The notes beneath the pieces were generated by a model. That model was not told the DNA's origin. It ran no database searches and saw nothing but the letters and a program-made list of their open reading frames with translations. Positions 11,250 through 55,635 of a DNA stretch of 64,000 nt are shown here, piece by piece (position 1 is the stretch's first letter; each line of letters opens with the position of its first letter). The position numbers and the translations under genes are program-made. Origin of the DNA: an uncultured Desulfobacteraceae bacterium (GTDB lineage: Bacteria; Desulfobacterota; DSM-4660; Desulfatiglandales; HGW-15); assembly GCA_964520425.1 (NCBI GenBank), contig CAZFMX010000001.1, positions 48,764-112,763 on the forward strand, read 5' to 3'.

Positions 11250-11313
11250 TTGAAACATTCACAGAACACATTACCCGCTGTATATCAAGATTATTATTCA
11301 AGGGAGAAATTTG

Positions 11314-12576
11314 ATGAAAACAAGACGATTGGGCATGGGACAGTCTCATGTAAAAAAGGCAATGAAGCACGAGAAGATTACACGGGATTTTCATCTGAAA
11401 ACTATGTTGGGATTAATGCTGGTCACCCTATTGGTGGTTGGATGCAGTGGTGAGGGCGGTGGCCTCGTCGGTGGCGACGGGAGTTCTTCGGAAGCCTTAC
11501 TCCAGGGGATATTTATGGACAGTGCGGTCGAGGGGCTGGAGTATGAGACTGAAACCCAATTCGGTGTGACCGATCATGACGGGACTTTCATGTACATGGA
11601 AGGAGAAACCGTCATGTTTCACGTTGGAGATATCGTATTGGGAGAGGCTCATGCTCAATCCATGATGACACCGATCGATCTGGTAAATGGCGCCATGGAT
11701 GAAACCCATCCCATGGTCATCAACATGGCCCGGTTTATTCAGACCCTGGATGAGGACATGGATCCTGAAAACGGGATTACCATTACCGAAGAGATGAGGA
11801 CCGCAATGATCGGCCACATGATAGATTTCAATATGGACCCAGACTTATTTGAGTATGATCCTGATGTTCAGATGTTCATGCATACGCTCAACGGGATGCA
11901 TTCATCGGGTTCCATGAGAATGATGGTGTCCGCCGAAAACGCGAAGTGGCACCTCCATATTACGATAATGGGGATGATGGACTTTGTGACGGCTGGAAGG
12001 TTTTTGGACAGTTCAGTTGAGGGACTTGAATATCAGACTCAAATGCATTTTGGTGTGACGGATCAAAACGGTACCTTTATATACATGGAAGGAGAGACTG
12101 TCATGTTTCACGTCGGGGATATTGTATTGGGAGAGGCCCATGCTCAATCCATAATGACGCCGATCGATCTGGTGGATGGCGCCACGGATGAAACCCATCC
12201 CATGGTCATCAACATGGCCCGGTTCCTTCAGACCCTGGATGAGGACATGGATTCCGAAAACGGGATTACTATTACCGACGAAGTGAGGGCCGTGATGGTC
12301 GGTCACATGATTGATTTTGATATGGCCCCGGACCTTTTTGAGTATGATCCTGATGTTCAGCTGTTTTTGGATACGCTCAATGGAGTCTTTTCATCGGGTC
12401 CCATGAGAATGATGGTGTCCGCTGAAGATGCTCAGGATCACTTGCGTAAGACAATGGAGGAGATGATGTCGGACGATTCTGGGATGATGGACGATGAAAA
12501 CATGATGGATGGTAACAGCGGCATGACTACGAGTGATACCGATTCAATGGCGGGTGACATGAATCTGATGGGTTAA
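11314..12576 (+). CDS. Met-rich lipoprotein with internal tandem duplication and Met/Asp-rich tail (putative periplasmic Cu(I)/Ag(I)-binding protein)
   Basis: Lipobox LLVVGCSG. About 50 Met in about 420 aa by my count. Two about 163 aa repeats. C-terminal tail MMSDDSGMMDDENMMDGNSGM...MAGDMNLMG. AGGGAG RBS precedes ATG 11314. The N-region is unusually long, so a later Met start is possible. Confidence 0.7.
   Translation: MKTRRLGMGQSHVKKAMKHEKITRDFHLKTMLGLMLVTLLVVGCSGEGGGLVGGDGSSSEALLQGIFMDSAVEGLEYETETQFGVTDHDGTFMYMEGETVMFHVGDIVLGEAHAQSMMTPIDLVNGAMDETHPMVINMARFIQTLDEDMDPENGITITEEMRTAMIGHMIDFNMDPDLFEYDPDVQMFMHTLNGMHSSGSMRMMVSAENAKWHLHITIMGMMDFVTAGRFLDSSVEGLEYQTQMHFGVTDQNGTFIYMEGETVMFHVGDIVLGEAHAQSIMTPIDLVDGATDETHPMVINMARFLQTLDEDMDSENGITITDEVRAVMVGHMIDFDMAPDLFEYDPDVQLFLDTLNGVFSSGPMRMMVSAEDAQDHLRKTMEEMMSDDSGMMDDENMMDGNSGMTTSDTDSMAGDMNLMG
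11497..12474 (+). repeat. in-gene tandem duplication, 2 x 489 bp (163 aa)
   Basis: GGAC at 11517 aligns with GGAC at 12006, giving a period of 489 bp. Long near-identical blocks are present, for example ATGGAAGGAGA.ACCGTCATGTTTCACGT and GATGAAACCCATCCCATGGTCATCAACATGGCCCGGTT. Confidence 0.9.
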
Positions 12577-17175: not shown

Positions 17176-17466
17176 GATATAATGGGTTCTTCCGGCAAAA
17201 AACAAAAAAACACGCTGTGCGCCTTTCCACAATCTCATGCGTTTTAGACATGATTCTCACGCTTTCACCGGATCAAAGCCGCGCGGTGATAAGCTATATT
17301 AATAAAAACCATCTGATTACTGACAGATACATGCTGAACTGTGATACGCTGTTCTGTGGAATGATGCTCGCCATCGCCGATGGGATGGATAAATACCTGA
17401 GAATTCAAGACAAGCTGATTAGCCGGTGAGGAATTGCTTAACTATGATTTAAGGGGAGGTTGGACA

Positions 17467-19932
17467 ATGCACAATAATGAACATTCCGGTCATCAAACCA
17501 TGGGTCATGATGAATTCACTGACCCTGTTTGCGGCATGAAGACCGACAAAGTAGGCAAGTTCCTCCAGTACGAACATGATGGAAAAAACTACTATTTTTG
17601 CAGCAGTCATTGCCTTGAAAAATTTAAAGATGATCCCCAGAAATATATCCATGCAATGCCTTCCGAAACTGTTGAATCCCGATCAAATGGGGATACAGGG
17701 AGACTTTACATCTGTCCCATGGACCCCGAAGTAGAGCAATACGGTCCCGGAACGTGCCCCAAATGCGGTATGGCGCTCGAGCCGGCAACAACTGTGCCTC
17801 CTGCTTCTCATACGGAATATGTCTGCCCCATGCATCCGGAAGTGGTTCAGGATCAGCCGGGGAATTGCCCAAAATGCGGCATGGCGCTCGAGGCTCGCGT
17901 CACTTCCCTTGATGAGGAAGAAAAAAATCCTGAATACGAGGATATGCGGAAACGATTTATCATCGGCGGCATACTCACCTTGCCGCTGGTGATAATCGCC
18001 ATGCGCGAGCTCATTCCGGGGGGCCGTATTCTTGACTCGATTGCCTCGGCCAGGATCTATGAATGGCTGGAATTAATTCTCGCGACCCCTGTGGTGCTCT
18101 GGGCCGGATGGCCCTTTTTTATCAGAGGGGTGCAATCCGTGATCAACCGGAGCCTCAACATGTTCACACTCATCGGCCTTGGGGTCTCGGTAGCCTATAT
18201 ATACAGCCTGGTGGCCGTCTTTTTCCCTGAATTATTTCCAGAGGCTATGCGATCAGCCGAGGGCAATGTCGGCGTTTATTTTGAGGCATCGGCTGTAATT
18301 GTTACTCTCATCCTGATGGGCCAGGTTTTAGAATTGCGGGCCCGGAGCCGCACTGGTGCAGCTATCAAGGCGCTTTTAGGCCTTGCCCCGAAGACGGCCA
18401 GAAAAATCAGTGAAACAGGTGAAGAGACGGATATCCCCCTCGACCAAGTCGAGGCGGGAGATAAGCTGAGAGTGCGTCCGGGTGAAAAAATCCCGGTAGA
18501 TGGTATCGTGCTGGAGGGATCGAGCAGTGTAGATGAATCCATGATCACCGGCGAACCTATCCCTGTGGAAAAAAATGCTGGCGACAGGGTAATCGGGGCC
18601 ACGGTAAACGGTACCGGCACGATTATTATGCGGGCGGAAAAGGTGGGCACTGAAACAGTTCTGTCGCAAATCGTCAGGATGGTAGCGGAAGCCCAGAGAA
18701 GTAGGGCCCCAATTCAGAAACTGGCGGATATTGTCGCCGGTTATTTTGTTCCTACCGTTATCGCCGTTGCCGTCTTATCCTTTGTGATCTGGTTTATTGT
18801 CGGTCCTGCTCCGAGGTTAGCCGCTGCTCTCATAGCGGCGGTATCGGTGCTCATTATTGCATGCCCCTGCGCTCTGGGTCTCGCCACTCCAATGTCTATA
18901 ATGGTTGCGACCGGTAAAGGTGCTACCATGGGTGTGTTGTTTAGAAACGCGGAGGCTATAGAGACCCTCCGTAAGATCGATACGCTTGTCGTCGATAAAA
19001 CCGGCACACTTACAGAAGGGAGTCCAAAATTAACAAAGGTCATTGGGGTGAATGATTTTGATGAAAACAGGGTCCTTTCCCTTGCCGCGACGCTGGAGAA
19101 GGGAAGCGAACATCCCCTAGCCGCAGCCATACTTTCGGGGGCGATGGATAGAGGTGTGACGCTCGGCGTTGCGAACGATTTTACATCTCACACCGGAATG
19201 GGTGTTTCCGGCAATGTGGACAATCATCAGGTCGCATTGGGCAATATGAAGTTGATGCAGGATTTCGGGGCGGACCCCGGCAGCATACAGGACCGGGCCG
19301 GAAATTTGCGGGACGAAGGCGAGACCGTCATGTTTGTGGCAATAGACGGAAAAGTTGCGGGCCTGGTTGGAGTGGCCGACCCTATTAAAAAAACAACGCC
19401 TGAGGCGATTAAACAACTGCATCGGGAAAATATCAGGATTGTTATGCTTACAGGTGACAGCCGGGCCACCGCTGAGGCTGTTGCCCGAAAACTCAATATC
19501 GATGAAGTCGTGGCGGAGGTCTTGCCCGATGAAAAGGCAGCGGCAGTCAAACGGTTTCAGGAGGCAGGGTACATGGTGGCTATGGCAGGAGACGGCATCA
19601 ATGATGCCCCGGCCCTTGCCCAGGCAGAGGTGGGAATCGCCATGGGAACCGGTACGGATGTGGCCATGGAAAGTGCGGGTGTCACCCTTGTTAAAGGGGA
19701 CCTCCTTGGCATTCTAAAGGCAAGGCTTCTGAGCCGGGCCACCATGCGCAATATCAAACAGAACCTCTTTTTCGCTTTTATTTACAATAGCATTGGTGTA
19801 CCGATTGCTGCCGGAGTATTGTATCCATTTTTTGGCATATTATTGAGCCCTATGATCGCCGCACTGGCCATGAGCTTCAGCTCTGTTTCGGTGGTCGGCA
19901 ATGCCTTGCGCTTACGGACCGTGAAGATCTAA
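17467..19932 (+). CDS. copA: copper/silver-translocating P1B-type ATPase with N-terminal YHS plus two HMBD-type Cys4 metal-binding modules
   Basis: CPC motif ([12 protein letters not shown]), DKTGTLT, SEHPLA, MLTGD and [10 protein letters not shown]. The N-terminus carries DPVCGMKTD...[12 protein letters not shown] (YHS) and two [18 protein letters not shown] repeats. GGGGAGG RBS precedes ATG 17467. Confidence 0.95.
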
Positions 19933-20586
19933 AAGGCCGAACAAATTAGAGGGAGAAAGGAATCAAATTCTGAATACCGGCAATTCCTAAAGAAGTTTAA
20001 CAATCCTATGGAAAGCAGGCTTCCTGCCGACATATTTACTTGGGGAAATGTCATAGCATGGAATGCTAAACTGAAATATTATGTAACATGCTAAAACAAG
20101 TCGACTTTTTCGCAAGACATGTCAGGACGTCTTCCCGGTGCGCATTAATTTCGCACCTGGGATATTTTTCATAGCTGAAACTGCGCATTTCTTTTGCATC
20201 GCCTTAGCGACGCCTCCAATCTTAGCGCTAGACGGTCATGGGGGAATAGTGGAAGAAACGAGGCTATAGAGAGAAGGTGATTCTTCTTGATAACCTCTTG
20301 AAAACATGCAGTAAACACCAGCTTGAATAACCAGCTCCGGTCCCCAATAACCAAAAAAAGGAGCTTTGATGATTCAAGGAAAAGCGACTCAGGCATTGAT
20401 CTTGCGAAATGATCAGTTGAATAGTAAAAATGACGCTCTTATATTGAAAGCGTCGTGAGGAGTTCAGGGTATTATCGTTTGCGATGTCACTTGGTTTGAG
20501 AACGCTTCTTGAGAATCATGATTCAAGAGTAGAATCGAGTTGTGAAGCGACCGATACGCTTCTATTCGAAATGGGGAGGCGAAACG

Positions 20587-21969
20587 ATGACAATCATACG
20601 AAACTCATTAGTACTGATTGGTGTCTTTGTTCTTGTAACGGCTTGTGCAACGGTTCAGGAAAAGCAGGCTTTTTCGGATTGGAACAAGGAGGCTCGGAAA
20701 TGGAGTAGAACTGTCGAGGAAGATGTGGATCTACCTGAGCTGGATGAAAAAGCCTCACTTGATGACTACGTGCTCTACGCCATGCTCAACAACCCAGGAC
20801 TACGGGCAGCCTTTGACCGCTGGAAAGCGGCACTCGACAAAGTAGGTCCCGCTCAGACCCTTCCTGACCCTCGTTTTACTTATGCCAACTATGTTCGTGA
20901 AGTGGAGACCCGCGTCGGCGCTCAGGAGCAAAAATTCGGCCTAGCCCAGACCTTCCCATGGTTTGGCAAGCTGGATCTTCAGGGCGACATCGCGCTTCAG
21001 GCGGCTCATGCCGAACAGCAGCGTTATGAAGCCGCCAAATTGGGTTTGATGTACCGGGTCAAAAACATCTATTACGAATACGCGTATCTGGCAGAGGCCA
21101 TTGAGATCACAAAAAATAATCTGACCCTCCTCACTTATTTGGAAGGGGTTGCACGAACAAAATACAAGAGCGGAGAAGGACTTCAGAGCGCTGTGATTAA
21201 GGCCCAGGTGGAGTTGGGCAAATTGGAGGATCGTTTGCACTCCCTTCAGGATTTGATGAGGCCTATGGTGACAAAACTGAACATGGCACTGAACCGTCCT
21301 TCGAATATGCCTCTTCCCATGCCAAAAGGCCTGCCTCAAGAAAAACCTGCTTTCGATGATGATGCCCTGTTCGCTTTACTGCATGAGAATAATCCGAATC
21401 TCAAGGCCTTTGATTACATGACAACCAAAGAGGATCTGGCAATCCGACTTGCAGAAAAAAACCATTTCCCCGATGTGACTCTTGGTGTGGATTACATCGA
21501 TACCGCCTCCCGTACTGATGCAAATCCCGTTGACAATGGCAAGGATCCTGTCGTTGCTATGTTATCTTTCAACCTGCCCATATGGCAGCAGAAATATGAC
21601 GCCGTCACATCCGAAGCCAGAGCGCGTCGTCGAGCAGTCGTGCGTGAAAAAAAGGAAAAAGAGAATCTACTCATTGCAGACCTTGAGGTAGCCCTCTTCG
21701 GGCTACGTGACGCGGATCGAAAAATCGACCTGTATCGGGATACCCTGCTCCCAAAGGTAGAGCAAAGCTTAAAGATCACGGAACTGGCATTTACGGCAGA
21801 AAAGGCGACTTTTCTCGACCTGATTGATTCACAACGAATCCTTCTTGGATTCCAGCTTGAACACAAACGAGCCCTCGCCGATCGCGCCCAGCGAGTGGCA
21901 GAGATCGAGATGCTCACGGGTGGGAGTATGGGTCAGAAGCTTCTTGAACGAAGCAATGAGGAGAAATGA
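20587..21969 (+). CDS. cusC: TolC-family outer membrane efflux lipoprotein (CusC-like)
   Basis: Lipobox VLVTAC and two OEP-type repeats. It lies directly upstream of, and overlapping, the adaptor gene. GGGGAGG RBS precedes ATG 20587. Confidence 0.85.
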   Translation: MTIIRNSLVLIGVFVLVTACATVQEKQAFSDWNKEARKWSRTVEEDVDLPELDEKASLDDYVLYAMLNNPGLRAAFDRWKAALDKVGPAQTLPDPRFTYANYVREVETRVGAQEQKFGLAQTFPWFGKLDLQGDIALQAAHAEQQRYEAAKLGLMYRVKNIYYEYAYLAEAIEITKNNLTLLTYLEGVARTKYKSGEGLQSAVIKAQVELGKLEDRLHSLQDLMRPMVTKLNMALNRPSNMPLPMPKGLPQEKPAFDDDALFALLHENNPNLKAFDYMTTKEDLAIRLAEKNHFPDVTLGVDYIDTASRTDANPVDNGKDPVVAMLSFNLPIWQQKYDAVTSEARARRRAVVREKKEKENLLIADLEVALFGLRDADRKIDLYRDTLLPKVEQSLKITELAFTAEKATFLDLIDSQRILLGFQLEHKRALADRAQRVAEIEMLTGGSMGQKLLERSNEEK

Positions 21970-23996
21970 TCATGAAAAAAATCATAACGAGAATGATGGA
22001 AAAGAACAGAATGAGACGATTTGTCTTCCCTCTCATTCTAGTGGTTATCGCCTTTCTTTTTGGGTTTATGCTCCGGGGCGGTGGAACGGAAATAGCTATG
22101 GAGCCTGAAGTCCATGAACATGCCTCCGAAGAGACCCAAGCACAGATATGGACCTGTTCCATGCACCCGCAGATCCGCATGTCTCATCCGGGAAAATGCC
22201 CCATTTGCGGCATGGACCTTATACCGGTTGCCAGCGGTAATCATGCTGAAAAAATGGGCGATCGTGAGTTGAAACTCTCACCATTGGCCATGAAGCTGGC
22301 CGACATACAAACCGTCCCTGTAGAGCGAAAATATGTTTCAGTGTCCATCCGAATGGTGGGTAAGGTGGATTATGATGAAACCCGTGTGGGGCACATTACA
22401 GCGTGGGTGCCCGGACGGCTCGACCGCCTTTATGTGGATTATACCGGCATCTCTGTGAGAAAGGGCGACCATATGGTCTATCTATACAGCCCCGAACTCC
22501 TAACCGCCCAGGAGGAATTGATTCAGGCTATTCGGGCATTGGGCGAACTCAAGGAAAGCGGAATGAAAATCATGCGCGAGACTGCCTCGCAGACAGTTGA
22601 AGCCTCCAGAGAGAAACTCCGTTTGTGGGGACTGACCGAAAAGCAGATCACCGAGATTGAGAAGAGCGGAGAGGCTTCTGATCACATCACGATCTACTCC
22701 CCCATGGGAGGTGTAGTTATTGAAAAGCATGTGGAGGAAGGAGAGTACGTTAAAACCGGTACGCGTCTTTACACTATCGCTGACCTTTCACACTTATGGA
22801 TAAGACTGGACGCCTACGAATCAGATCTTGTATGGCTCCGGTATGGCCAAGAGGTCCAGATTGAAACTGAGGCCTATCCGGGTGAGGTATTCAAAGGGAC
22901 CATTGCATTTATTGATCCGGTCCTTGATACAAAAACCAGAACAGTAAAGGTGCGTGTCAACGTCCCCAATACCGACGGCCGGCTGAAGCCGGAGATGTTT
23001 GTCCACACCACGGTCCATGCCCGTGTGGCCGCATCCGGCAAGGTGATGGATGAAGCCTTGGCAGGCAAGTGGATCTGCCCTATGCATCCGGATATCATTA
23101 AGGATCAAGCCGGTTCCTGTGACATCTGCGGCATGCCGTTGGCGCGTACGGAATCACTGGGATATGCCTCTGTCTCAGGCGATGAGGAAGATACCGCTCC
23201 GCTCGTGATTCCCGCATCCGCCCCTCTTATCACGGGTAAGCGAGCCGTTGTGTACGTGGCTCATTCCGAGAAAGAAGGGATTTTTGAAGGACGTGAAATC
23301 GTTTTGGGTTCCAGGGCCGGAGATTATTATCTCGTCAGTGATGGTCTTGAGCAGGGTGAAAGAGTGGTCGTGAACGGCAATTTCAAGATTGATAGCGCCC
23401 TTCAAATCCTTGCAAAGCCCAGCATGATGAGTCCTGAGGGAGGCGTACCGATGACAGGCCATGCCCTTCACGGGGATATGGTGATGCCCCAGAAGGAGGC
23501 CAAGGATACTCCAAAAACCGCAAAGCAGGAGACACAAGCGCCCCTGGCATTTAGGGAACAGATCGATGGGGTTTTGATCGCCTATTTTGAGATTCAAAAG
23601 GAACTCTATCGGGATGAGGCAAAGGAGGTCAGAAAGGGGAGTAAGAGCCTGCTGAACGCCCTCAGAACAGTCGATATGGAACTATTAAGTGGGAATGCCC
23701 ATATGGCTTGGATGAAGGAACTCAAAGATCTTAACGAACAAGCTTCAGCTCTGGAGAAGACTTCGGATATCAACAAGCAACGAGAAGCCTTTTACCTGGT
23801 TTCCGAGACCCTCACATCGGTCGTCAAACAATTCGGAACCAGCGGGAAACGGGCTGTCCTGCAATTCCATTGTCCCATGGCATTCGAAGGCAGAGGAGCC
23901 GATTGGTTGCAGAACGAATCCGAAGTACAAAACCCCTATTTTGGACAGGCTATGCCCCGGTGCGGAGAAGAGATCGCGACTTTGGTGCAACCTTAG
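21966..23996 (+). CDS. cusB: efflux RND periplasmic adaptor (CusB-like) with two HMBD Cys4 modules and DUF3347-like C-terminus
   Basis: HlyD/MFP core (ITAWVPGRLDRLYVDYTG...). CSMHPQIRMSHPGKCPICGMDL and CPMHPDIIKDQAGSCDICGMPL are present. The helical C-terminal region is similar to DUF3347. ATGA overlap with the cusC stop. Confidence 0.9.
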   Translation: MIMKKIITRMMEKNRMRRFVFPLILVVIAFLFGFMLRGGGTEIAMEPEVHEHASEETQAQIWTCSMHPQIRMSHPGKCPICGMDLIPVASGNHAEKMGDRELKLSPLAMKLADIQTVPVERKYVSVSIRMVGKVDYDETRVGHITAWVPGRLDRLYVDYTGISVRKGDHMVYLYSPELLTAQEELIQAIRALGELKESGMKIMRETASQTVEASREKLRLWGLTEKQITEIEKSGEASDHITIYSPMGGVVIEKHVEEGEYVKTGTRLYTIADLSHLWIRLDAYESDLVWLRYGQEVQIETEAYPGEVFKGTIAFIDPVLDTKTRTVKVRVNVPNTDGRLKPEMFVHTTVHARVAASGKVMDEALAGKWICPMHPDIIKDQAGSCDICGMPLARTESLGYASVSGDEEDTAPLVIPASAPLITGKRAVVYVAHSEKEGIFEGREIVLGSRAGDYYLVSDGLEQGERVVVNGNFKIDSALQILAKPSMMSPEGGVPMTGHALHGDMVMPQKEAKDTPKTAKQETQAPLAFREQIDGVLIAYFEIQKELYRDEAKEVRKGSKSLLNALRTVDMELLSGNAHMAWMKELKDLNEQASALEKTSDINKQREAFYLVSETLTSVVKQFGTSGKRAVLQFHCPMAFEGRGADWLQNESEVQNPYFGQAMPRCGEEIATLVQP

Positions 23997-24028
23997 CTAC
24001 CTTCGCTTTGGCAACATAGGAGAATACC

Positions 24029-27000
24029 ATGGCAGATGATGTTCGCACAGATAAAGGAACCACACCTTCCATTCTGGACCGGGTGATACGGTTTTTTCTG
24101 GAAAATAAACTCGTCGTGATCCTGATGATACTCCTTGTTGTGACATGGGGAATCATGGTTGCGCCATTTGATTGGGACACAGGATCCCTGCCACGCGATC
24201 CGGTGCCTGTGGACGCGATCCCCGACATCGGAGAGAACCAACAGATCGTTTTTACTCAGTGGATGGGGCGTTCTCCTCAGGACGTGGAAGATCAGGTGTC
24301 CTATCCATTGACTGTGGCACTGTTGGGCGTCCCCAAGGTCAAGACCATCCGCAGTTATTCCATGTTCGGATTCTCGATCGTTTATGTCATCTTCAAGGAA
24401 GATGCTGAATTTTATTGGTCCAGATCCCGGGTGCTCGAAAAGCTGAACAGCCTGCCGCCCGAAACCCTGCCGGAAGGGGTTCAGCCCATGCTGGGGCCGG
24501 ATGCCACGGCCTTGGGCCAGATATACTGGTATACACTGGAAGGCCGTGATTCCAAAGGCCACCCAACGGGCGGGTGGGATCTGCAAGAACTCCGTTCCAT
24601 ACAGGATTGGACCGTGCGCTATGCCCTGATGGGGGCGGAGGGCGTGAGTGAAGTGGCCTCTGTGGGCGGTTTTGTGAAGGAATATCAGATTGACGTGGAC
24701 CCCGATGCCATGCGGGCCTGGAACGTGAAACTGGAGGAGGTTTTCCGTGCCGTCAAGATGTCCAATAAAGATGTCGGGGCCAGGACTATCGAGATCAACC
24801 GCGCCGAGTACATCATCCGTGGAATCGGTTTTGTGAAAAGCCTATCCGACCTGGAAAACGCCGTCATCAAAGTCAATGACAATGTGCCGGTCTACGTCAA
24901 GAACGTGGCCCATGTCAGCCTGGGACCGGCATTACGGCGGGGGGCTCTGGACAAGGAAGGCGCTGAGGTGGTTGGCGGTGTCGTTGTGGTGCGTTATGGA
25001 GAAAACCCGCTGGCCGCCATCAAGAATGTCAAAAAAAAGATTGCCGAAATCGCGCCGGGACTCCCCAAAAAGACACTTCCGGACGGGACTGTGAGTCAGG
25101 TAACCATTGTCCCTTTTTACGACCGCACTACCCTGATCAACGAGACATTGGGAACGCTCAATACCGCCTTGACAGAAGAAATCCTGGTCACCATCATTGT
25201 CATCCTGTTCATGTTAATGCATTTGAGGAGTTCCATACTTGTGGCAGGCCTGCTTCCCCTGGCCGTTCTCATGTGTTTTGTCGCCATGAAGCTTTTTGGC
25301 GTGGATGCCAACATTGTGGCCTTATCAGGTATTGCCATAGCCATCGGCACCATGGTGGACATGGGCATTGTCTTATGTGAGAATATCGTGAGGCGGCTGG
25401 AGGAGGCCGGGCCGGACCAGAGCCGCCTCGAGGTCATCTATAGCGCTTCTATTGAGGTGGGGAGCGCCGTACTCACGGCCGTGTCCACCACCGTAATCGG
25501 GTTTCTGCCGGTCTTCACCATGCAAGCGGCCGAAGGCAAGCTGTTTAAACCTCTGGCATTTACTAAGACATTCGCCCTCATTTCCTCGGTCATCGTCGCC
25601 CTGACCATCATCCCGGCTCTGGCCCATCTACTCTTTTCCAGTAGCTTCAAGGTCAAAAGACTAAGGGGCATCACCCACTGGGCTTTGATTGTGTTGGGCA
25701 TCATTGTGGCCTTTATCCTAAATGTATTTTTAGGTGTTTTACTTGCTCTTGTTGGCGCCTTTCACCTGGTTGAATCACGAGTTCCGCAGATCATCAAACG
25801 TGCTGTTCCCTATTTGCTGGTAGCCGCTGTGCTCCTGTTTTTTATCATTGTGTTGAGTGAGCACTGGCTGCCCATGGGACCGGAACAGGGCATTGTCCGT
25901 AATTTCATCTTTGTTGTTATGGTCATTGGCGGGTTGTTGCTGTCCATCCAGTTCTTTATTCGTGTGTACCGACCGATCCTGGCCTGGTGTCTGGACCACA
26001 AGACACTTTTTTCAATGATCCCCCTGGCCATTCTTCTTTTTGGAGGGATGACCTGGCTGGGCTTTGACAGTTTCTTCGGATGGCTTCCTGACGGGATTAA
26101 AAACAGCCGGATTGTGTCACCCATCGCGAATCGATTCCCCGGGTTGGGCAAGGAATTCATGCCGCCGCTGGATGAGGGGTCATTTCTCTATATGCCCACC
26201 ACCATGCCCCATGCTTCCATCGGTGAGGCCCTGGACGTATTGCAGAAACAGGACATGTCTTTCCGTGATATTCCAGAAATCGAATCCGTTGTGGGCAAAC
26301 TGGGGCGCGCTGACACACCGCTTGATCCTGCCCCCATTTCAATGATTGAAACCGTCATCAATTATAAGAGTAAGTATGTTGTCGATAAAAAAGGACGACG
26401 GGTCACGTTCAAATTCGACGAAGATCAAACAGATCTCTTCCGCGACGTCAACGGAGTGCCTCTATCCGCCCCTGACGGGGAACCCTTTTTCGTGCGGGGG
26501 TTATACCCAAGGGATAATTCAGGTCGTCTCATCCCGGACAAGGACGGCAAACCTTTTCGCTTATGGCGGCCGGTCCTGGATCCCGATCTTAAAGGCCGTT
26601 TAGAAGATGGTACTGTGTCGGATCTCAACTCCGGTCGCGAGGCGTGGAAAGGGATTCAAAGTCCGGATGACATATGGGACGGGATCGTGAAGGCTGGAGA
26701 AATTCCGGGGACCACTTCAGCACCGAGACTCCAACCCATTGCAGCGCGTATCGTGATGCTCCAGAGCGGCATGCGGGCCCCCATGGGAATCAAGGTGAAG
26801 GGTCCCAGCCTGGAGATCATTGAGAAGGTGGGTCTCCAACTGGAACGGTTTCTCAAGGAGGTCCCATCCGTGGAGCCTTCTGCTGTGATCGCGGACCGCA
26901 TCGTGGGCAAGCCCTACCTGGAGATAAAGATTGATCGTGAAGCCATCGCCCGCTACGGTATCATGCTGGAAAAGGTCCAGGATGTCATTGAAATCGCCAT

Positions 27001-27946
27001 CGGAGGCAGGCCAATTACCACAACCGTGGAAGGGCGTGAACGCTATCCGGTCCGGGTCCGCTACCTGCGGGAGTTGCGTGACAGCATCGAGGACATCGGG
27101 CGTATCCTTGTGCCGGCAGCAGGCGGGGCGCAGATCCCCTTAGCACAATTGGCTGAAATCAAATATGTCCGCGGCCCACAGGTCATCAAGAGTGAGGACA
27201 CTTTCTTGATAGGCTATGTGCTTTTTGACAAACGGGAAGGCTGGGCCGAGGTGGATGTAGTGGAGCAGGCAGGGGCCTATCTAAATGAAAAGATCAAGAA
27301 TGGTGAATTTGAATTGCCGGCAGGTGTCAGCTACACCTTTGCCGGGAGTTATGAAAATCAGGTCCGATCGGAGAAGAAACTGATGGTCGTCCTTCCTTTG
27401 GCGCTTTTTGCCATTTTTCTCATTCTCTATTTTCAATTCCATTCCGTATCAACAACATTACTCGTTTTCTCCGGTATCTTTGTGGCCTGGGCAGGCGGCT
27501 TTATGCTCATCTGGCTCTACGCCCAGCCCTGGTTTATGAATTTTTCGGTCTTCGGTAGCCATATGCGGGATTTTTTTCAGGTCCATCCCATCAACCTGAG
27601 TGTCGCCGTATGGGTGGGTTTCCTCGCCCTTTTCGGCATTGCCTCGGATAACGGCGTGATCATGGCGACCTATCTCAATCAGACTTTTGATCGGACCAAA
27701 CCTGAATCGGTCAAAACCATCCGCGAAGCCACCATCGAAGCCGGTATGCGGAGGGTGAGGCCGTGTCTCATGACTACAGCCACAACCATCCTGGCGCTTG
27801 TGCCGGTACTCGCGTCTACGGGTCGCGGTTCCGATATCATGGTGCCCATGGCCATCCCGTCGTTCGGCGGGATGCTTGTCGTGATCGTGAGTATCTTTAT
27901 CGTACCGGTCCTCTACTGTGCTATCAGAGAGTATAGGTTAAAGTAA
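24029..27946 (+). CDS. cusA: CusA/CzcA-family heavy-metal RND permease, long (1305 aa) variant
   Basis: Collinear with E. coli CusA as I recall it. This includes the contexts of the Met triad (LYMPTT, SMIETV, IVMLQSG). It carries extra hydrophobic and periplasmic insertions. Confidence 0.9.
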   Translation: MADDVRTDKGTTPSILDRVIRFFLENKLVVILMILLVVTWGIMVAPFDWDTGSLPRDPVPVDAIPDIGENQQIVFTQWMGRSPQDVEDQVSYPLTVALLGVPKVKTIRSYSMFGFSIVYVIFKEDAEFYWSRSRVLEKLNSLPPETLPEGVQPMLGPDATALGQIYWYTLEGRDSKGHPTGGWDLQELRSIQDWTVRYALMGAEGVSEVASVGGFVKEYQIDVDPDAMRAWNVKLEEVFRAVKMSNKDVGARTIEINRAEYIIRGIGFVKSLSDLENAVIKVNDNVPVYVKNVAHVSLGPALRRGALDKEGAEVVGGVVVVRYGENPLAAIKNVKKKIAEIAPGLPKKTLPDGTVSQVTIVPFYDRTTLINETLGTLNTALTEEILVTIIVILFMLMHLRSSILVAGLLPLAVLMCFVAMKLFGVDANIVALSGIAIAIGTMVDMGIVLCENIVRRLEEAGPDQSRLEVIYSASIEVGSAVLTAVSTTVIGFLPVFTMQAAEGKLFKPLAFTKTFALISSVIVALTIIPALAHLLFSSSFKVKRLRGITHWALIVLGIIVAFILNVFLGVLLALVGAFHLVESRVPQIIKRAVPYLLVAAVLLFFIIVLSEHWLPMGPEQGIVRNFIFVVMVIGGLLLSIQFFIRVYRPILAWCLDHKTLFSMIPLAILLFGGMTWLGFDSFFGWLPDGIKNSRIVSPIANRFPGLGKEFMPPLDEGSFLYMPTTMPHASIGEALDVLQKQDMSFRDIPEIESVVGKLGRADTPLDPAPISMIETVINYKSKYVVDKKGRRVTFKFDEDQTDLFRDVNGVPLSAPDGEPFFVRGLYPRDNSGRLIPDKDGKPFRLWRPVLDPDLKGRLEDGTVSDLNSGREAWKGIQSPDDIWDGIVKAGEIPGTTSAPRLQPIAARIVMLQSGMRAPMGIKVKGPSLEIIEKVGLQLERFLKEVPSVEPSAVIADRIVGKPYLEIKIDREAIARYGIMLEKVQDVIEIAIGGRPITTTVEGRERYPVRVRYLRELRDSIEDIGRILVPAAGGAQIPLAQLAEIKYVRGPQVIKSEDTFLIGYVLFDKREGWAEVDVVEQAGAYLNEKIKNGEFELPAGVSYTFAGSYENQVRSEKKLMVVLPLALFAIFLILYFQFHSVSTTLLVFSGIFVAWAGGFMLIWLYAQPWFMNFSVFGSHMRDFFQVHPINLSVAVWVGFLALFGIASDNGVIMATYLNQTFDRTKPESVKTIREATIEAGMRRVRPCLMTTATTILALVPVLASTGRGSDIMVPMAIPSFGGMLVVIVSIFIVPVLYCAIREYRLK

Positions 27947-28023
27947 CACTCATGAATTCTATCGACTTTAGGTGCCGATTGAGCCATCATTTTTATGTCG
28001 AAGAAAAAGTTGAGAAAGGAAGT

Positions 28024-29319
28024 ATGAATGTGAATGAAGCGAAGAACTTGAGTGACTTGAAAGGTGAATTCAGGGAGAAGGTCAGAGAATTGCTGCCTGA
28101 AGGCATTCTGGACGTCTGTCTCACGTGTGAGGTTTGCGCGAGTGAATGCCCGGCCACCGGGCTCGAAGATATGGACCCCAAAAAGTTTGTCAGGATGGTT
28201 GCTCTTGGAATGGATGAGGAGGTTTTGACCACTCCCTGGGTGTGGATGTGCAGTATGTGCCAGCGGTGTCTCCATGCCTGCCCCAAGAAGGCGGATATCC
28301 CTCAGATAGTCAGTTTGGTTCGAAAGAATTGGCCCAGAGAGGAGGTCCCTAAAGGTATCTTGGGATCGTGTAATATGGCCCTCAAACACGACACCTGTAG
28401 TGCGATGGGAGTCAGTGAAGAAGAATTCCAATCTTTGGTTGAGGATTTGGTTGAGGAAGTTCGCGAGGATCAACCGGGCTGGGAGGATCTACAGGCCCCG
28501 GTCAATAAAGAAGGAGCGGAATTCTTCCTTAATCAAAACTCAAGGGAGCCGGTAACCGAACCTGATGAGATGGTTCCCCTATGGAAGATACTGCATCTTG
28601 TCGGGGCTGATTGGACTTACGGCACAAAAGGATGGGCAGCAGAAAACTATTGCATGTTTATGGAAGATTGGGATTCGTGGGAACATATTGTTAGGGTCAA
28701 AGCAAAGGCCGTTGACGACCTGGGCTGCAAGTATTGGCTCAACACGGAATGAGGCCACGAGTTCTTTGCGGTCCGGGACGGACTGGAGAAATTCAATATT
28801 CCTCATAAATTTGAGATTATTTCGATCATTCAGTGTTATGCCAAATGGATCAGGGAAGGAAAACTGAGGGTCAACTCTGATTGGAACAAGAATCTCAAGG
28901 TGAAGTTCACGGTTCATGACCCCTGCCAATTGGTGAGAAAGACCCTTGGTGATCCAGTTGCGGAAGATCTAAGGTTTGTCGTCAAATCGGTTGTGGGTGA
29001 AGAGCATTTCATTGACATGCATCCCAACAGATCCAACAATTACTGTTGCGGCGGCGGCGGAGGTTATTTGCAGTCTGGACTCACTGAAGCCAGACGTCAC
29101 TTTGGAAAACTGAAATTCAATCAGATCAAGGACACGGGGGCTGATTATTGTATTACGCCATGCCATAACTGCCATACGCAAATTCGCGATCTGAGCACGC
29201 ATTTTAAAGGGGGCTACCATACCGTTCACTTATGGACCCTTATCTGCCTTTCACTGGGATGTCTCGGAGAGAATGAAAGAGCCTATCTCGGACCTGACCT
29301 CGCAGAGGTGGGATTGTGA
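28024..29319 (+). CDS. HdrD/DsrK-like (Fe-S)-binding CCG-domain protein, predicted selenoprotein (TGA at 28750-28752 read as Sec)
   Basis: ORF-track entries 27952..28752 and 28900..29319 are in the same frame, and the 147 nt between them are open. Two CxxCxxCxxxCP motifs (CLTCEVCASECP, CSMCQRCLHACP) are present. A complete CCG domain lies downstream of the TGA (DPCQLV...NYCCGGGGG...PCHNCH). A SECIS-like hairpin follows the TGA. Confidence 0.7.
28769..28785 (+). promoter_or_regulatory. SECIS-like hairpin downstream of in-frame UGA
   Basis: CGGUCCG-GGA-CGGACUG forms a 7 bp GC-rich stem (one G-U pair) with a G-rich apical loop. It starts 16 nt after the UGA. A weak lower-stem extension (UUU/AGA) is possible. 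Confidence 0.5.
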
Positions 29320-29562
29320 TCTATTTAGTGCCCATCCATAAACGGCCCTTTTGGCCAATCTCTGCGTCACTCTTCAGATTGTAATCCTCGAAATACTCTA
29401 ATGTATTCCTGTGGTTACAATCCTTGCGTTCCTTGACCTTGACCAAAAAACCTCGTTTTTGGATGGACACTATTTAATAAAAAGGCCATATAGAATATAC
29501 TTTCTTCAGTCCCTCGCTTCAGTCTTTAGCCTTCGACCTTCAACCTAGTTTGAGGAAACACT

Positions 29563-30588
29563 ATGCCCATTCCCGGAAACCTTCTCACTACGGCCATGGC
29601 CGTTATGCCCCATACAGACGTGGACAAGGCCATTGAAGTGGCCCTTTCAATGGATATCCCTTTCTGGCCGCAATTACCTCACTACAATTATTATGAAGAC
29701 ATGTATGTTCAAGCCTCGGAACACTTTCCAGGCATTCTACTCAACATGGAAGCAAAGACTCTCAGATTCTCTACAGATAAATTCCTGGAAGAACTGGAAG
29801 AGACCATGAGCCATTTTAATGATCCTGAATACTTTGACATAAGCGACACATACTCCGTTGTGTACCATCGTTTTTTGAATCTGGATCTCGCCAAGAGACC
29901 CGCCATACGTGGTCAACTGGAAGGTCCGATCAGCTTTGGATTTAATGTTGTGGATGAAAACGATCGTCCCATTCTGTTCAACGATACTGTCAGGATGGTC
30001 ATGCTCGATTTTATGGCCAGGAGAGTGAATGTTCAGTTGAAAAGGCTGAAGGAGAAAAATCCCAATGCCTTTATGTTTATTGATGAACCCGGGCTTCAGT
30101 TCCTCTGGAGTGCCATGTCGGGTTACGGAGACCAAGCGGCCAGAGAAGACATGGATTCGTTTTTTACCATGATTGAAAGGCCGCGAGGAGTGCATCTATG
30201 TGGAAATCCGGATTGGGATTTCCTCTTGGGGATGGATCTGGATATTCTATCCCTTGATATTTATACGAACAACGAGATCTTTGTGTCCTACGCCAAGTCC
30301 GTACAGAGGTTCCTGGATCGTGGCGGAACCCTCGTTTGGGGCATCGTCCCCACCAATTTCGAGCCCTTTGAAAAAGAAGACATCCCTTCCCTGATTTCAA
30401 GGCTAGAGGATGTGTGGTCGGTCCTTGATCATAAGGGCATTGACAGGGAGTTCCTCTTGTCTCGGAGCCTGCTTTCCCCGGCCACTTGCTGTCTGATCAA
30501 TCCGGACGGGGAAACAACCGTGGAAAAGGCCTTTGAGGTAGTCAGGGAATTGTCGGGTACCCTTCGAGATCGGTATGGACTGAAGTAA
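29563..30588 (+). CDS. MetE C-terminal/UROD-fold (TIM-barrel) methyltransferase-like protein
   Basis: 341 aa with GVHLCGNPDW and SPATCCLINP, reminiscent of the His/Cys Zn site of cobalamin-independent methionine-synthase-like proteins. The assignment is tentative. Confidence 0.4.
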   Translation: MPIPGNLLTTAMAVMPHTDVDKAIEVALSMDIPFWPQLPHYNYYEDMYVQASEHFPGILLNMEAKTLRFSTDKFLEELEETMSHFNDPEYFDISDTYSVVYHRFLNLDLAKRPAIRGQLEGPISFGFNVVDENDRPILFNDTVRMVMLDFMARRVNVQLKRLKEKNPNAFMFIDEPGLQFLWSAMSGYGDQAAREDMDSFFTMIERPRGVHLCGNPDWDFLLGMDLDILSLDIYTNNEIFVSYAKSVQRFLDRGGTLVWGIVPTNFEPFEKEDIPSLISRLEDVWSVLDHKGIDREFLLSRSLLSPATCCLINPDGETTVEKAFEVVRELSGTLRDRYGLK

Positions 30589-51673: not shown

Positions 51674-52600
51674 ATGAAAAGATCAAAACGTGACATAGCA
51701 CTGCTGACCATTCTTAGTATCGTGATTTGTTTTCCCTCTCTTGGATTCGCGATGGCAGAAGAGAGGATTGTCGAAACCTATCCTTTGGAGAGCACAGGCA
51801 AGGTGTATCTGGAAAACATATCCGGTGACATCACAGTGAGTAGCTGGGATAAAAACGAAATTGAGATCACGGCGATCAAAAAAGGTCGAAGGGAGAGAGA
51901 TCTTGATGACGCCACTATTCATATTCGTCAAATCGACGGTAATATCCGGATCATTACAAGGCACGACAGAGAATTCAGTCTGTTCCGATCAGGCTCTGTA
52001 TCCATTATTTATGACATCGTTGTCCCTGCCAAAGCGTCGGTGAGGGTGAAAAGCATAAGCGGTGATGTTGAAGTACGAAAGATAGGCGGCCTTCTAAATG
52101 TAGAGACTGTCAGTGGTGAGATACGGGTAAGACTTGCCGAGAGTAACGTGCGATGCAAAAGCACAAGCGGTGATATCGATATGGAATACATTCACGGAGA
52201 TGCTGAGTTAGAAAGCGTATCCGGAGAAATATCTATACAGGAGATTGAGGGCTCCGTAGAAGCAGGAACCGTCAGTGGAGACATTGAGCTGGAGGCATTT
52301 TCTTATTCGGAAGAAATAGAGGTGAGTTCCACCAGCGGGGATGTAAAGTTACGAGGAGAGTTGAGCCCCGGAGGCATCTATAGACTCGATTTATTCAGCG
52401 GAGATACAAAAGTGGTTATACCGTCCGACTCAGACTTTGAGTTTTCAGCAAAAACGTTTAGTGGTTCTATAGAGTCTGACTTTGAGCTTAAGCTGTCAGG
52501 GAGATTCAACCCGAAAAAAATCCGAGGGACTGTCGGCAAAGGCGGGGCCAGCCTTGCCATTTCTTCATTCAGTGGAAATATACGCATTATGAAACGGTAA
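51674..52600 (+). CDS. DUF4097 (toast-rack) beta-repeat protein 1, secreted
   Basis: Signal peptide, then many repeats of the SGDI/SGEI-x-V type (ISGDVEVRKIGG, VSGEIRVRLAE, TSGDIDMEY, VSGEISIQE, VSGDIELE). Confidence 0.8.
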   Translation: MKRSKRDIALLTILSIVICFPSLGFAMAEERIVETYPLESTGKVYLENISGDITVSSWDKNEIEITAIKKGRRERDLDDATIHIRQIDGNIRIITRHDREFSLFRSGSVSIIYDIVVPAKASVRVKSISGDVEVRKIGGLLNVETVSGEIRVRLAESNVRCKSTSGDIDMEYIHGDAELESVSGEISIQEIEGSVEAGTVSGDIELEAFSYSEEIEVSSTSGDVKLRGELSPGGIYRLDLFSGDTKVVIPSDSDFEFSAKTFSGSIESDFELKLSGRFNPKKIRGTVGKGGASLAISSFSGNIRIMKR

Positions 52601-52712
52601 AGCCCTGAGTTTAGTGATGCGTTTACAACAGAGTGTTGTAATGTAGAGACTGGCTATAAGCTGGAAAAAGAATATAGAGACTAAAACATTTTTATCAGCG
52701 GAGGGTGTTGTT

Positions 52713-53084
52713 ATGTATAGCGTGAGACGTGTGTGTGTATGGGTTATGATAATGAGTCTGTGCCTTATTATTAGCGGGTGTTTGATTTCTACGCGACAAT
52801 ATACGAATCAGACATCTCCGGGACGCGAATTATCAAAGAGTCAAATAAAGAAGATCGAGCCGGGAGTAACGACGAAAGAGTGGCTGTTGCAGACATTCGG
52901 AATGCCGACAAGGCAAAGGACCTTTGATAATGGTGAGGAAACATGGGAATATGAGAGAAGTTACAGAACAGAGTCTGAAAGCCATGTATTCTTCATTATC
53001 AACACAGAAACTGTCACCAGGACAAGAGAGACATTGATCATTGACATAAAGGACGGCATTGTCCAGGACTACGTGTTTGAATGA
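52713..53084 (+). CDS. BamE/SmpA_OmlA-like lipoprotein
   Basis: Lipobox LIISGC, and KIEPGVTTKEWLLQTFGMPT...GEETWEY typical of SmpA_OmlA. Confidence 0.65.
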   Translation: MYSVRRVCVWVMIMSLCLIISGCLISTRQYTNQTSPGRELSKSQIKKIEPGVTTKEWLLQTFGMPTRQRTFDNGEETWEYERSYRTESESHVFFIINTETVTRTRETLIIDIKDGIVQDYVFE

Positions 53085-53160
53085 TGGTAAAAAGCCCCTT
53101 TTTTCAGAGATGGGCAAGGCTCGGAACTGGTTCCGGCAACAACCTCTAAAAAGGAGCATC

Positions 53161-53973: not shown

Positions 53974-54354
53974 GGGGCCAGACAGAGCCTATTGTCTTCG
54001 GATTGTACCTTTTCCCTCCTTTGAGTTATCGGCAGCCTGATTTTCTTCTGCACTGTGAATCTTCAGTGAAAAATGTTCGAAAACGAACAAAATAACCTTA
54101 AAAACGGACAACCCTCAGTTGGGAGATCAAGTTAACTTATTGAAATAAAAAGAATTAAAGCCACGGCACGCTTATTGCTGATATGAAATGACATGGCGTT
54201 TTCATATCGGTTTCATTTTGAAATCTCTTCATTGGCCAAATAGGGCACTTGTTAGTTTCTTTCGCCAGATATGGGCTTTTTAACCAAATCTCGTAATCCT
54301 GGTGAATATATGTAACATGCTGATTTGACAGTAGTTCTTGGACTATATGATCAA

Positions 54355-54370
54355 TGGCACGATTCCTGCG
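54355..54370 (+). promoter_or_regulatory. sigma-54 promoter of pspA copy 2
   Basis: TGGCACGATTCCTGCG, identical to copy 1 over 15 nt, about 38 nt upstream of ATG 54408. Confidence 0.8.
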
Positions 54371-54407
54371 ATTGTATATGGCAAACAGAGAACAAAGGAG
54401 GCCAGCT

Positions 54408-55094: not shown

Positions 55095-55105
55095 GGAGAA
55101 ACATC

Positions 55106-55492: not shown

Positions 55493-55635
55493 TTGCAGGA
55501 GAACATCGCAATATCATTCTTTTGTAACCTTTTCGCAAAGATAGAGTTTTATAGGGGGAATAAGCAGTAATGAACCAGCGAATTCATAACGAAAACCTTC
55601 AGAAGATAACGAAGACCATGAAAGGAGACTGAGTG

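Follow-up and report, generated by a model that had tools for sequence, protein, structure and literature searches.

A selenoprotein family designated 'Fe-S oxidoreductase (GlpC)' was reported in 2006 (Zhang et al. 2006, PMC1794560), and a 2026 review lists an 'Fe-S oxidoreductase-like protein' family with the motif UGH and WP_174406253.1 as its example (PMC13188914). The Desulfobacterota are rich in selenoproteins and have complete sel genes where examined (PMC1794560; PMC2702500), and a Sec-containing HdrD4 has been annotated in Desulfobacterium autotrophicum HRM2 (PMC2702500). In most selenoprotein families, Sec is found in place of a redox-active Cys (PMC1794560). Proteins of the DsrK type share a conserved GECGH or T/GECGH motif (PMC10861901), the Cys of which is the one surviving residue of a lost distal-cluster site (PMC10861901; bioRxiv 10.64898/2026.08.25.746951). 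Cryo-EM of A. fulgidus DsrK placed this residue, Cys329, between the substrate and the cluster as a non-ligating, persulfidated Cys (bioRxiv 10.64898/2026.08.25.746951); a role as catalytic sulfur relay has been proposed for Cys329, and one as proton relay for His331 (PMC10861901; bioRxiv 10.64898/2026.08.25.746951). Both points of literature in the original prediction, namely, that GlpC/HdrD-like proteins are a reported deltaproteobacterial selenoprotein family and that DsrK-type proteins carry an E-C-G-H motif, agree with these papers.

The locus described here occupies positions 28024-29319 of the window, the whole 64-kb stretch of DNA that was analyzed. We consider it, with a probability of about 0.87, to be one selenoprotein gene with a bacterial SECIS element, encoding a soluble HdrD-like fusion in which Sec243 carries out redox chemistry. 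The features of the locus are as follows.

28024..29319, + strand: proposed complete selenoprotein CDS, 431 codons including Sec243 (frame continuous apart from one internal TGA; homologs; HmcF match across the TGA)
28108..28293, + strand: HdrC-like ferredoxin domain with two CxxCxxCxxxCP motifs (Pfam Fer4_8, Fer4_17 and Fer4_9, residues 29-90; HdrC PDB matches)
28750..28752, + strand: UGA probably read as Sec243, within the motif N-T-E-U-G-H (Cys column in homologs; TGA recurrence)
28769..28785, + strand: probable SECIS hairpin CGGUCCG-GGA-CGGACUG with a 7-bp stem (folding, covariation, synonymous codons, Cys-form control)
28909..29187, + strand: complete CCG domain with Cys301, Cys341, Cys342, Cys380 and Cys383 (Pfam CCG, E = 4.9e-14, residues 296-388)
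29317-29319, + strand: stop codon of the proposed selenoprotein CDS

Translation of positions 27952-29319 yielded a single frame whose sole internal stop, flanked as WLNTE-*-GHEFF, was the TGA at 28750-28752. The two ORFs reported for this region (27952..28752 and 28900..29319) were in phase, and the intervening 147 nt contained no stop, bearing out the prediction that the TGA is the only barrier between them. The ATG at 28024 was also chosen by other gene callers, as a 242-aa fragment was found in a protein collection, and initiation at this codon gives a product of 242 + Sec + 188 = 431 residues. Homologs are ~430 aa in length and cover 94 to 100% of this product at 55 to 75% identity. A Cys had been expected opposite the TGA, and this check was run: Cys occupied the TGA column in all of the best 120 full-length homologs (120/120). 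Homologs encoded as two genes, or with a C terminus at this point, would have spoken against a joined gene; the best 120 were all single genes. The NCBIfam HmcF model matched the product as one stretch (residues 27-406) across the TGA, and the TmcB model likewise aligned across it.

Two ferredoxin motifs upstream (CLTCEVCASECP and CSMCQRCLHACP) and one complete CCG motif downstream (DPC...YCCGGGGG...PCHNC) had been predicted, and both were seen in the translation and with Pfam. Pfam Fer4_8 spanned residues 29-89, and the best PDB matches were the HdrC chains 8rvv_C, 7bkb_C and 5odc_C (E values of 1e-17 to 2e-14); the HdrC-like domain is predicted to carry two cubane [4Fe-4S] clusters. In a profile alignment, the CCG domain matched the C-terminal CCG motif of HdrB (5odc_B residues 119-270), which is the proximal-cluster site (bioRxiv 10.64898/2026.08.25.746951). 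Only this C-terminal motif aligned with the HdrB profile, and the region of Sec243 was not covered. The HdrB-like part contains one complete CCG motif and so is predicted to hold one noncubane [4Fe-4S] cluster, with the CCG domain as its site. The N-terminal CCG-like half is degenerate, having two of five Cys, and keeps Cys210 and TE-U243-G-H245, both positions being invariant in the family. An internal-repeat hhalign comparison placed U243 opposite the first Cys of the CxxC, which is the expected register, in a weak alignment (E = 0.15). At the motif level, the protein thus resembles the single-noncubane-cluster type, with one CX..CCG..CxxC in addition to TE-U243-G-H245. Other NCBIfam models matching the product were GlpC, HdrB and HdrC, and the product is, as judged from its sequence, a soluble fused HdrC/HdrB-like (HdrD-like, 'GlpC'-type) Fe-S oxidoreductase.

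The original description of the protein as 'HdrD/DsrK-like' holds for the single-CCG architecture and the T/GECGH-type motif and does not extend to identity with DsrK, HmcF, TmcB or canonical HdrD. The score against the NCBIfam DsrK model (NF045796) was 125.9 bits relative to a cut-off of 400, and no dsrM was adjacent. Scores for HmcF (188.7; cut-off, 750) and TmcB (168.8; cut-off, 735) were also far below threshold, and no cytochrome partners of the Hmc or Tmc type were present within 6 kb on either side of the gene. Canonical HdrD of the methanogen type (HdrDE), which has two complete CCG motifs and the cytochrome b HdrE as its partner, was rejected on the basis of the single Pfam CCG domain, the two of five Cys in the N-terminal CCG-like half and the absence of an adjacent cytochrome b gene.

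The unique TE-C/U-GH motif and the collinear model matches suggest that Sec243 corresponds to Cys329 of DsrK. As the latter is non-ligating, persulfidated and the proposed relay, nucleophile chemistry is the most likely role of Sec243. The second noncubane cluster site is degenerate. By homology, Sec243 would attack a disulfide, persulfide or polysulfide substrate, forming a selenosulfide intermediate. This selenosulfide would be reduced by the neighboring noncubane cluster, with electrons delivered via the HdrC-like clusters and His245 acting as proton relay. Given a selenoprotein, Sec243 could alternatively ligate the noncubane 'special' iron and tune the potential of the cluster instead of serving as a free nucleophile, a role that we regard as unlikely. 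Sec is a ligand of Ni in [NiFeSe] hydrogenase and of Mo/W in formate dehydrogenase. The residue descends from a lost distal-cluster ligand, and the conserved Cys possibly binds the cluster in DsrK-type proteins, giving the open S = 1/2 state (PMC10861901). Against ligation stand the location and persulfidation of Cys329 in the DsrK structure and the tendency of Sec to replace redox-active Cys. The widespread presence of Sec at the T/GECGH Cys position would itself be evolutionary evidence for a redox-active nucleophile rather than a cluster ligand, a line of evidence that is not cited in the DsrK papers (PMC10861901; bioRxiv 10.64898/2026.08.25.746951).

The upstream RND pump ORF (cusA) ends at 27946 on the same strand, leaving a gap of 77 nt to the ATG at 28024, in line with the short distance given originally. 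The immediate neighbors are cusA and a 341-aa ORF of unknown function; the gene is preceded by a copA-cusCBA metal-efflux cluster, and the HdrA, MetF and FdhA neighbors that are common in the family are missing from this copy. These surroundings could be those of an orphan paralog that is cotranscribed with Cu/Ag efflux genes and functions in thiol, persulfide or Fe-S repair during metal stress, not in HdrA-linked energy metabolism. No terminator was predicted between cusA and the gene. The adjacency to cusA was shared with only one relative, at ~90% identity, and was gone in relatives with no more than 81% identity. A functional link to cusCBA was treated as unlikely because of this disappearance, and the orphan-paralog role is improbable.

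For the selenoprotein gene itself, one line of evidence came from the RNA downstream of the TGA. A GC-rich, SECIS-like hairpin 16 nt past the TGA had been predicted and proved to be a conserved RNA structure that is specific to TGA forms. Positions 28769-28775 pair with 28779-28785 around an apical GGA loop (28776-28778) that begins 23 nt past the UGA. The minimum free energy (MFE) of a 61-nt stretch was -20.4 kcal/mol, compared to a mean of -13.0 for shuffled sequences (z = -3.06), and only 1 of 200 shuffles was as stable. Across 119 distinct sequences, pairing was found in 94.9% of cells, as opposed to 16 to 44% when the partner was slid. Compensatory changes were detected at five of the eight pairs (G-C 67/U-A 43, G-C 94/A-U 17 and U-A 42/G-C 39 for the swapped pairs), and the first G of the loop (G27) was invariant. 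Synonymous codons followed the pairing: Ala was GCC after Arg CGG (n = 36) and GCA after Leu CUG (n = 22), with zero exceptions, while Leu was CUG opposite Val GUC (n = 91) and UUG opposite Ile AUC (n = 15). In TGA forms, 6.9 of 7 positions paired in register, with a local MFE of -11.3 kcal/mol, whereas in the control Cys forms (n = 8) only 2.9 of 7 paired, the local MFE was -3.3 and the hairpin was absent. An extended lower stem in the MFE fold of the window sequence (columns 10-18 with 38-45) was rejected, as 28 to 83 of the 119 sequences were unpaired at most of its pairs; the hairpin claim is limited to the apical 7 to 8 bp. Rfam searches detected no SECIS family, either in the window at the gathering threshold or in 28700-28860 at E values of up to 10, the only matches being two chance snoRNA-like ones.

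These data point to the hairpin within the CDS serving as a bacterial SECIS and the UGA at 28750 being decoded as selenocysteine during translation; by analogy with E. coli fdhF, the element would bring SelB-GTP-Sec-tRNA(Sec) to the ribosome. A search of the window for a second credible gene with an in-frame TGA, which might confirm Sec decoding in this organism, found none. Read-through of the UGA without Sec, by a near-cognate Cys or Trp tRNA following loss of the Sec machinery or under selenium limitation, would also account for the open frame, and tRNA-Sec, selA, selB and selD were not found within the 64-kb window. Such read-through is very improbable, as selection, seen in compensatory changes and at synonymous sites, maintains a hairpin that would be meaningless without SelB binding and as the carriers listed are almost all Desulfobacterota, in which sel genes were complete where examined (PMC1794560; PMC2702500).

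Decoding of the UGA as Sec also has to be weighed against termination. The UGA could be a true stop that yields a 242-aa ferredoxin-like protein and a reinitiated CCG protein, resembling the HdrC and HdrB of methanogens, which are separate subunits (PDB 5odc). Gene callers output two ORFs at this locus, as the original prediction anticipated, and every source in which the gene occurs has it as fragments, a 242-aa 'ferredoxin' and a 'CCG' protein of roughly 140 to 150 aa. The break, however, falls on an invariant Cys inside the HdrB-like part and not at the HdrC/HdrB boundary, the Cys forms are uninterrupted and the hairpin is confined to TGA forms. The first in-frame start of the downstream part is, as had been noted, the GTG at 28900, which is separated from the TGA by 49 codons that are conserved in frame and include no start codon. 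Initiation there was thought to truncate the CCG domain; the ORF starts at residue 293 and, therefore, retains the whole Pfam CCG match (296-388), while losing 49 conserved residues (244-292) upstream of the domain. Two separate polypeptides are accordingly a highly improbable outcome.

Recurrence of the TGA was examined in genome and metagenome collections, with counts taken from the 120 matches listed in each. With a TGA-specific degenerate pattern, a TGA was found at the same codon in the genomes of at least 120 species, all of the listed matches being true homologs (120/120), and 105 of the 107 genome loci with a stop inside the locus had 169 to 197 codons after the TGA. Among the genome matches listed, carriers were almost all Desulfobacterota and included the cultured Desulfopila aestuarii DSM 18488 and Desulfoprunum benzoelyticum DSM 28570. 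Of the metagenome contigs listed, 112/120 had TGA and 8/120 had TGY. In the protein cluster (90% identity) of the 242-aa fragment, all 13 members, from ENA, JGI, NCBI and Logan, ended in ...LNTE. In two TGA-form loci (L044 and L114), the frame was shortened, and these copies may be damaged. A nonsense mutation, pseudogene lesion or sequencing or assembly error in a Cys-type gene, for which the Cys in the best 120 protein-database homologs and the two shortened frames might be cited, is effectively refuted by the recurrence of the TGA, followed by a ~190-codon intact frame, in 232 or more independent contigs, by the 13 cluster variants from four sources and by the covarying hairpin.

UGA is otherwise in ordinary use in the window, where it terminates a third of the genes (14 TGA, 14 TAG and 14 TAA stop codons). 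The one-gene homologs, the conserved TGA, the hairpin and this ordinary use of UGA together point to a selenoprotein gene with a SECIS. Within this subfamily, the TGA form is apparently the common one in environmental data (112/120 metagenome contigs listed), so that the Cys forms, although the minority, make up most of what protein databases show. The enzyme will be missed or truncated when metabolism is reconstructed from metagenome-assembled Desulfobacterota genomes. Sec at the position of the non-ligating catalytic Cys of DsrK provides some comparative support for the DsrK proposal, and D. aestuarii and D. benzoelyticum are cultured carriers suited to a Sec/Cys comparison.

Among known systems, the SECIS of E. 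coli fdhF shares with the hairpin of this locus a location inside the CDS at a short fixed distance past the UGA and a conserved G opening the apical loop. Here, a three-base loop (GGN or GUN) caps a perfect 7- to 8-bp stem. The fdhF element has a bulged U, and no such bulge is evident in the window hairpin. The fdhF hairpin, immediately 3' of its UGA, binds SelB, while SelB binding is only predicted for the hairpin described here.

The N-terminal half of the protein resembles HdrC, and its CCG domain resembles residues 119-270 of HdrB, of the methanogen HdrBC complexes (5ODC, 7BKB and 8RVV). In contrast to HdrBC, it is a fused single chain whose lost distal site survives only in Cys210 and Sec243, so that two-cluster homolytic cleavage cannot apply. 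With DsrK, HmcF and TmcB, its best NCBIfam matches, it shares two ferredoxin-type clusters and one CCG motif. These proteins have T/GECGH where the window protein has TE-U-GH, with Sec in place of Cys, and the window gene has none of their membrane cytochrome b partners (DsrM, HmcE or TmcC) next to it. As its last CCG ligand, the window protein has Cys (CHNC), in contrast to the Asp of many DsrK proteins.

HdrD4 (PMC2702500) is similar by description, being a soluble protein of the Desulfobacteraceae with HdrC- and HdrB-homologous domains and without a transmembrane part, although it is located in hdrA/hdrL loci, unlike the window copy. The closest counterpart is the GlpC selenoprotein family, from which this copy differs in following copA-cusCBA and in having no HdrA, FrhD, MetF or FdhA neighbor. 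The features held in common are the COG0247/GlpC-type architecture (a ferredoxin dicluster plus CCG by Pfam), a single in-frame UGA giving one predicted Sec in U-G-H with Cys in 120/120 of the best homologs, a SECIS element just past the UGA and occurrence in Deltaproteobacteria/Desulfobacterota. Architecture, motif, taxon and the neighbors of related loci, thus, assign the window gene to the 'Fe-S oxidoreductase (GlpC)' family. Knowledge of selenoprotein families is unchanged; the literature already describes this family along with its UGH motif and taxonomic range. As the family has been known since 2006, the result is an annotation repair rather than a discovery, and the window copy is a new, misannotated member of a known family.

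When 27800-29500 was read and 27952-29319 translated, a single open frame emerged, with just one internal stop, the TGA at 28750-28752 (surrounding sequence ...GCKYWLNTE-*-GHEFFAVRDGLEKFNI...), and the mechanical ORFs 27952..28752 and 28900..29319 were in phase with each other. The original prediction, that these two ORFs form one frame with the TGA as the only barrier, was therefore borne out. The product joined from the ATG at 28024 has 431 residues, with the predicted selenocysteine (Sec) at position 243. The features discussed here were as follows.

11311-12576: 421-aa ORF, no Pfam match
17434-19932, same strand as the selenoprotein gene, upstream: CopA-type ATPase
20542-21969, same strand, upstream: CusC
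21966-23996, same strand, upstream: CusB
24029-27946, same strand, upstream: CusA-like RND pump, 1305 aa
28024-29319, + strand: predicted selenoprotein gene, frame joined across the TGA
28769-28785, + strand: predicted SECIS hairpin, from fold and covariation
29563-30588, downstream of the selenoprotein gene: 341-aa ORF, no Pfam match
51674-52600, 53059-53973 and 55633-56436, on a shared strand: DUF4097 ORFs

When the joined sequence was searched against a large protein collection, 2819 proteins had E <= 1e-10. The top 120 were mostly 412-450 aa long, with identities of 55-75% and query coverages of 94-100%. In a MAFFT alignment, all of these best 120 homologues had Cys in the TGA column, within an almost invariant N-T-E-C-G-H motif, and none exhibited two separate genes or a C-terminus at this point. 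The NCBIfam HmcF model produced one continuous match spanning the TGA (residues 27-406). As the Cys-form homologues and the HmcF match run across the TGA, no homologue C-terminus or gene boundary is located there. A downstream GTG start had been expected to truncate the CCG domain; this did not hold, as the GTG ORF at 28900 begins at residue 293 and therefore retains the whole Pfam CCG match (296-388), the missing part being 49 conserved residues (244-292). The window gene is predicted to encode a true selenoprotein and to carry a covarying SECIS, gene callers having wrongly split it, and the first observation and its interpretation were both correct.

The two ferredoxin motifs (CxxCxxCxxxCP) and the one complete CCG motif anticipated on either side of the TGA were both present in the translation, and Pfam placed Fer4_8 at 29-89 ahead of the CCG domain. 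In PDB profile searches the N-terminal part matched HdrC chains 8rvv_C, 7bkb_C and 5odc_C (E values of 1e-17 to 2e-14), while the C-terminal CCG motif matched residues 119-270 of HdrB chain 5odc_B, the proximal noncubane cluster motif (bioRxiv 10.64898/2026.08.25.746951). The best NCBIfam scores were far below the cut-offs (HmcF, 189 versus 750 bits; TmcB, 169 versus 735; DsrK, 126 versus 400), and the protein is similar to all three but a member of none. The region ahead of the CCG domain is probably a degenerate second CCG half; all that is left of it is Cys210 and position 243, neither of which varies across the family.

The hairpin proposed as a SECIS, CGGUCCG-GGA-CGGACUG, lies at 28769-28785, 16 nt 3′ of the TGA. 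A 61-nt segment beginning at that codon folded at −20.4 kcal/mol against a shuffle mean of −13.0 (z = −3.06; 1 of 200 shuffles folding as well). The MFE fold of the window sequence also extended the stem downwards, but this pairing was unconserved and the extension was rejected; no Rfam model matched the hairpin when the window and the hairpin region were searched. In a gapless alignment of 119 distinct 54-nt segments from the TGA onward, helix columns 19-26 and 30-37 held standard pairs in 94.9% of cells, falling to 16-44% when the 3′ partner was slid by 1-3 columns. Both-sided changes occurred in five of the eight pairs, including the loop-closing pair (G-C 67, U-A 43) and two further swapping pairs (G-C 94, A-U 17; U-A 42, G-C 39); the covariation score was 0.308 versus 0.140 ± 0.009 for shuffled alignments, with none of 500 as high. 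The first loop base was G in every sequence (loops GGC, GGA, GGU, GUC, GUU and GUA). The most telling SECIS result was the codon-level pattern. After Arg CGG the codon ended in C (Ala was GCC 36 times and never GCA), after Leu CUG it ended in A (GCA 22 times, never GCC), and Leu was CUG when facing Val GUC (91 cases) and UUG when facing Ile AUC (15 cases); synonymous sites thus track their pairing partner, which is not explicable by protein-level selection. TGA forms had 6.9 of 7 positions paired in register and a local MFE of −11.3 kcal/mol versus 2.9 of 7 and −3.3 for Cys forms, a small control (n = 8) with a large gap.

The TGA is conserved. A 242-aa N-terminal fragment was present in the protein collection as a 90%-identity cluster of 13 sequences (ENA, JGI, NCBI and Logan), all of which stop at ...LNTE although the residues just upstream vary, and one JGI contig carried the same split (242-aa ORF plus 151-aa CCG ORF). 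Scanning one genome per species with the degenerate DNA pattern [LIV]-N-T-E-TGA-G-H-x2-[YF]-[AS]-x3-G matched at least 120 contigs, and all 120 listed were true homologues. The frame continued for 169-197 codons beyond the TGA in 105 of the 107 loci with a downstream stop inside the fetched DNA. Two TGA-form genome loci had short frames, L044 (209+119 codons) and L114 (80+37 codons), perhaps through gene decay or misassembly. Carriers among the matches listed were nearly all Desulfobacterota and included the isolates Desulfoprunum benzoelyticum DSM 28570, Desulfopila aestuarii DSM 18488 and Desulfopila sp. IMCC35006. A metagenome scan with the same degenerate pattern, now allowing TGH (TGA, TGC or TGT) at this codon and missing Ser coded by AGY, gave 112 TGA, 7 TGC and 1 TGT among the 120 matches listed, a rough ratio. 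The TGA form seems dominant in the subfamily in environmental data and may be its majority form in nature; it is nearly invisible in protein databases. UGA is a normal stop in the window's organism, ORFs of at least 150 aa ending in 14 TGA, 14 TAG and 14 TAA codons.

By nearest-neighbour analysis Sec and Cys forms fell into separate groups (169 U-to-U, 119 C-to-C and 7 mixed), and all nearest relatives of the window copy were Sec forms. Four Cys-form proteins, P0005, P0008, P0011 and P0017, were closest to Sec forms (71-83% identity) and retained ...[VFM]R[AVS]G[LI]KKFN, the residues encoding the hairpin in Sec forms. This suggests Sec-to-Cys reversions which, on a protein-level reading, may be recent conversions with a fossil SECIS.

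The expected position close downstream of cusA on the same strand was found, with a gap of 77 nt rather than 78 and no terminator-like site within it. This adjacency was common only to the window copy and the metagenome locus L162, at 89.6% identity, and was lacking in relatives at <= 81%; it is best read as lineage-specific and probably without functional meaning. Recurrent neighbours across TGA-form loci were HdrA-like proteins (107 loci), MetF-type MTHFR (53), MetV (19), FdhA-type molybdopterin enzymes (12) and FrhB/FdhB-like proteins, none of which was within 6 kb of the window copy. Upstream of the homologous loci (L005-L244), HdrA-like neighbours were broken into 182 ORF pieces across 107 loci and FdhA-like neighbours came as 540-aa pieces, as would be expected if these neighbours, too, were selenoprotein genes interrupted by in-frame UGA codons. 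No tRNA, sel gene or second in-frame-TGA candidate was detected in the 64-kb window. ARAGORN identified a tRNA-SeC (anticodon tca) at 1821-1912 of L211, a metagenome contig bearing a Cys-form homologue.

A nested inverted repeat (29326-29472), single copy in the window, begins 7 nt past the selenoprotein gene's stop codon. Its 19-nt outer arms (TAGTGCCCATCCATAAACG / CGTTTTTGGATGGACACTA) are 89% complementary and 109 nt apart, and an imperfect palindrome of 20 nt lies between them (29377-29422). The repeat may represent a structured 3′ element, a terminator region or an insertion of REP/MITE type. The metal-efflux cluster (17434-27946) has unusual extra domains and length: the CusA-like ORF, presumably ∼260 aa longer than a typical CusA, matched ACR_tran in three stretches, the CusB-like protein has two HMBD domains and DUF3347, and CopA has YHS and HMBD domains. 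The DUF4097 'toastrack' ORFs are three paralogues in one same-strand cluster within 51674-56436.

GlpC/HdrD-like Fe-S oxidoreductases had been named as a reported selenoprotein family in Deltaproteobacteria, and this agrees with Zhang et al. 2006, who listed 'Fe-S oxidoreductase (GlpC)' as such a family, with members in Syntrophobacter fumaroxidans, Desulfotalea psychrophila and Desulfovibrio vulgaris (PMC1794560). A 2026 review lists a 'Fe-S oxidoreductase-like protein' with motif UGH and one Sec, 'predicted with high confidence' (PMC13188914), and a Sec-containing soluble HdrD (hdrD4) is annotated in Desulfobacterium autotrophicum HRM2 (PMC2702500). The window gene showed all of the family features tested and would be a newly found member of an already known selenoprotein family.

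DsrK, HmcF and TmcB have one CCG motif and, within a T/GECGH motif, a Cys that is strictly conserved (PMC10861901), in line with the E-C-G-H expected for DsrK-type proteins. In the cryo-EM structure of A. fulgidus DsrMKJOP (2026 preprint), Cys329 is persulfidated, does not ligate the cluster and lies between it and the substrate Cys; Cys329 and His331 are proposed as sulfur and proton relays, respectively (bioRxiv 10.64898/2026.08.25.746951). Neither of these DsrK papers mentions selenocysteine. The window protein has TE-U243-G-H245 at this position, so that in a motif-level mapping Sec would occupy the DsrK-type catalytic residue, falling exactly on the non-ligating Cys. Some added value of this gene lies in the apparent dominance of the TGA form in environmental data and in a predicted Sec, within TE-U-GH, at the Cys recently defined in DsrK, whereas DsrK, HmcF and TmcB carry Cys within T/GECGH.
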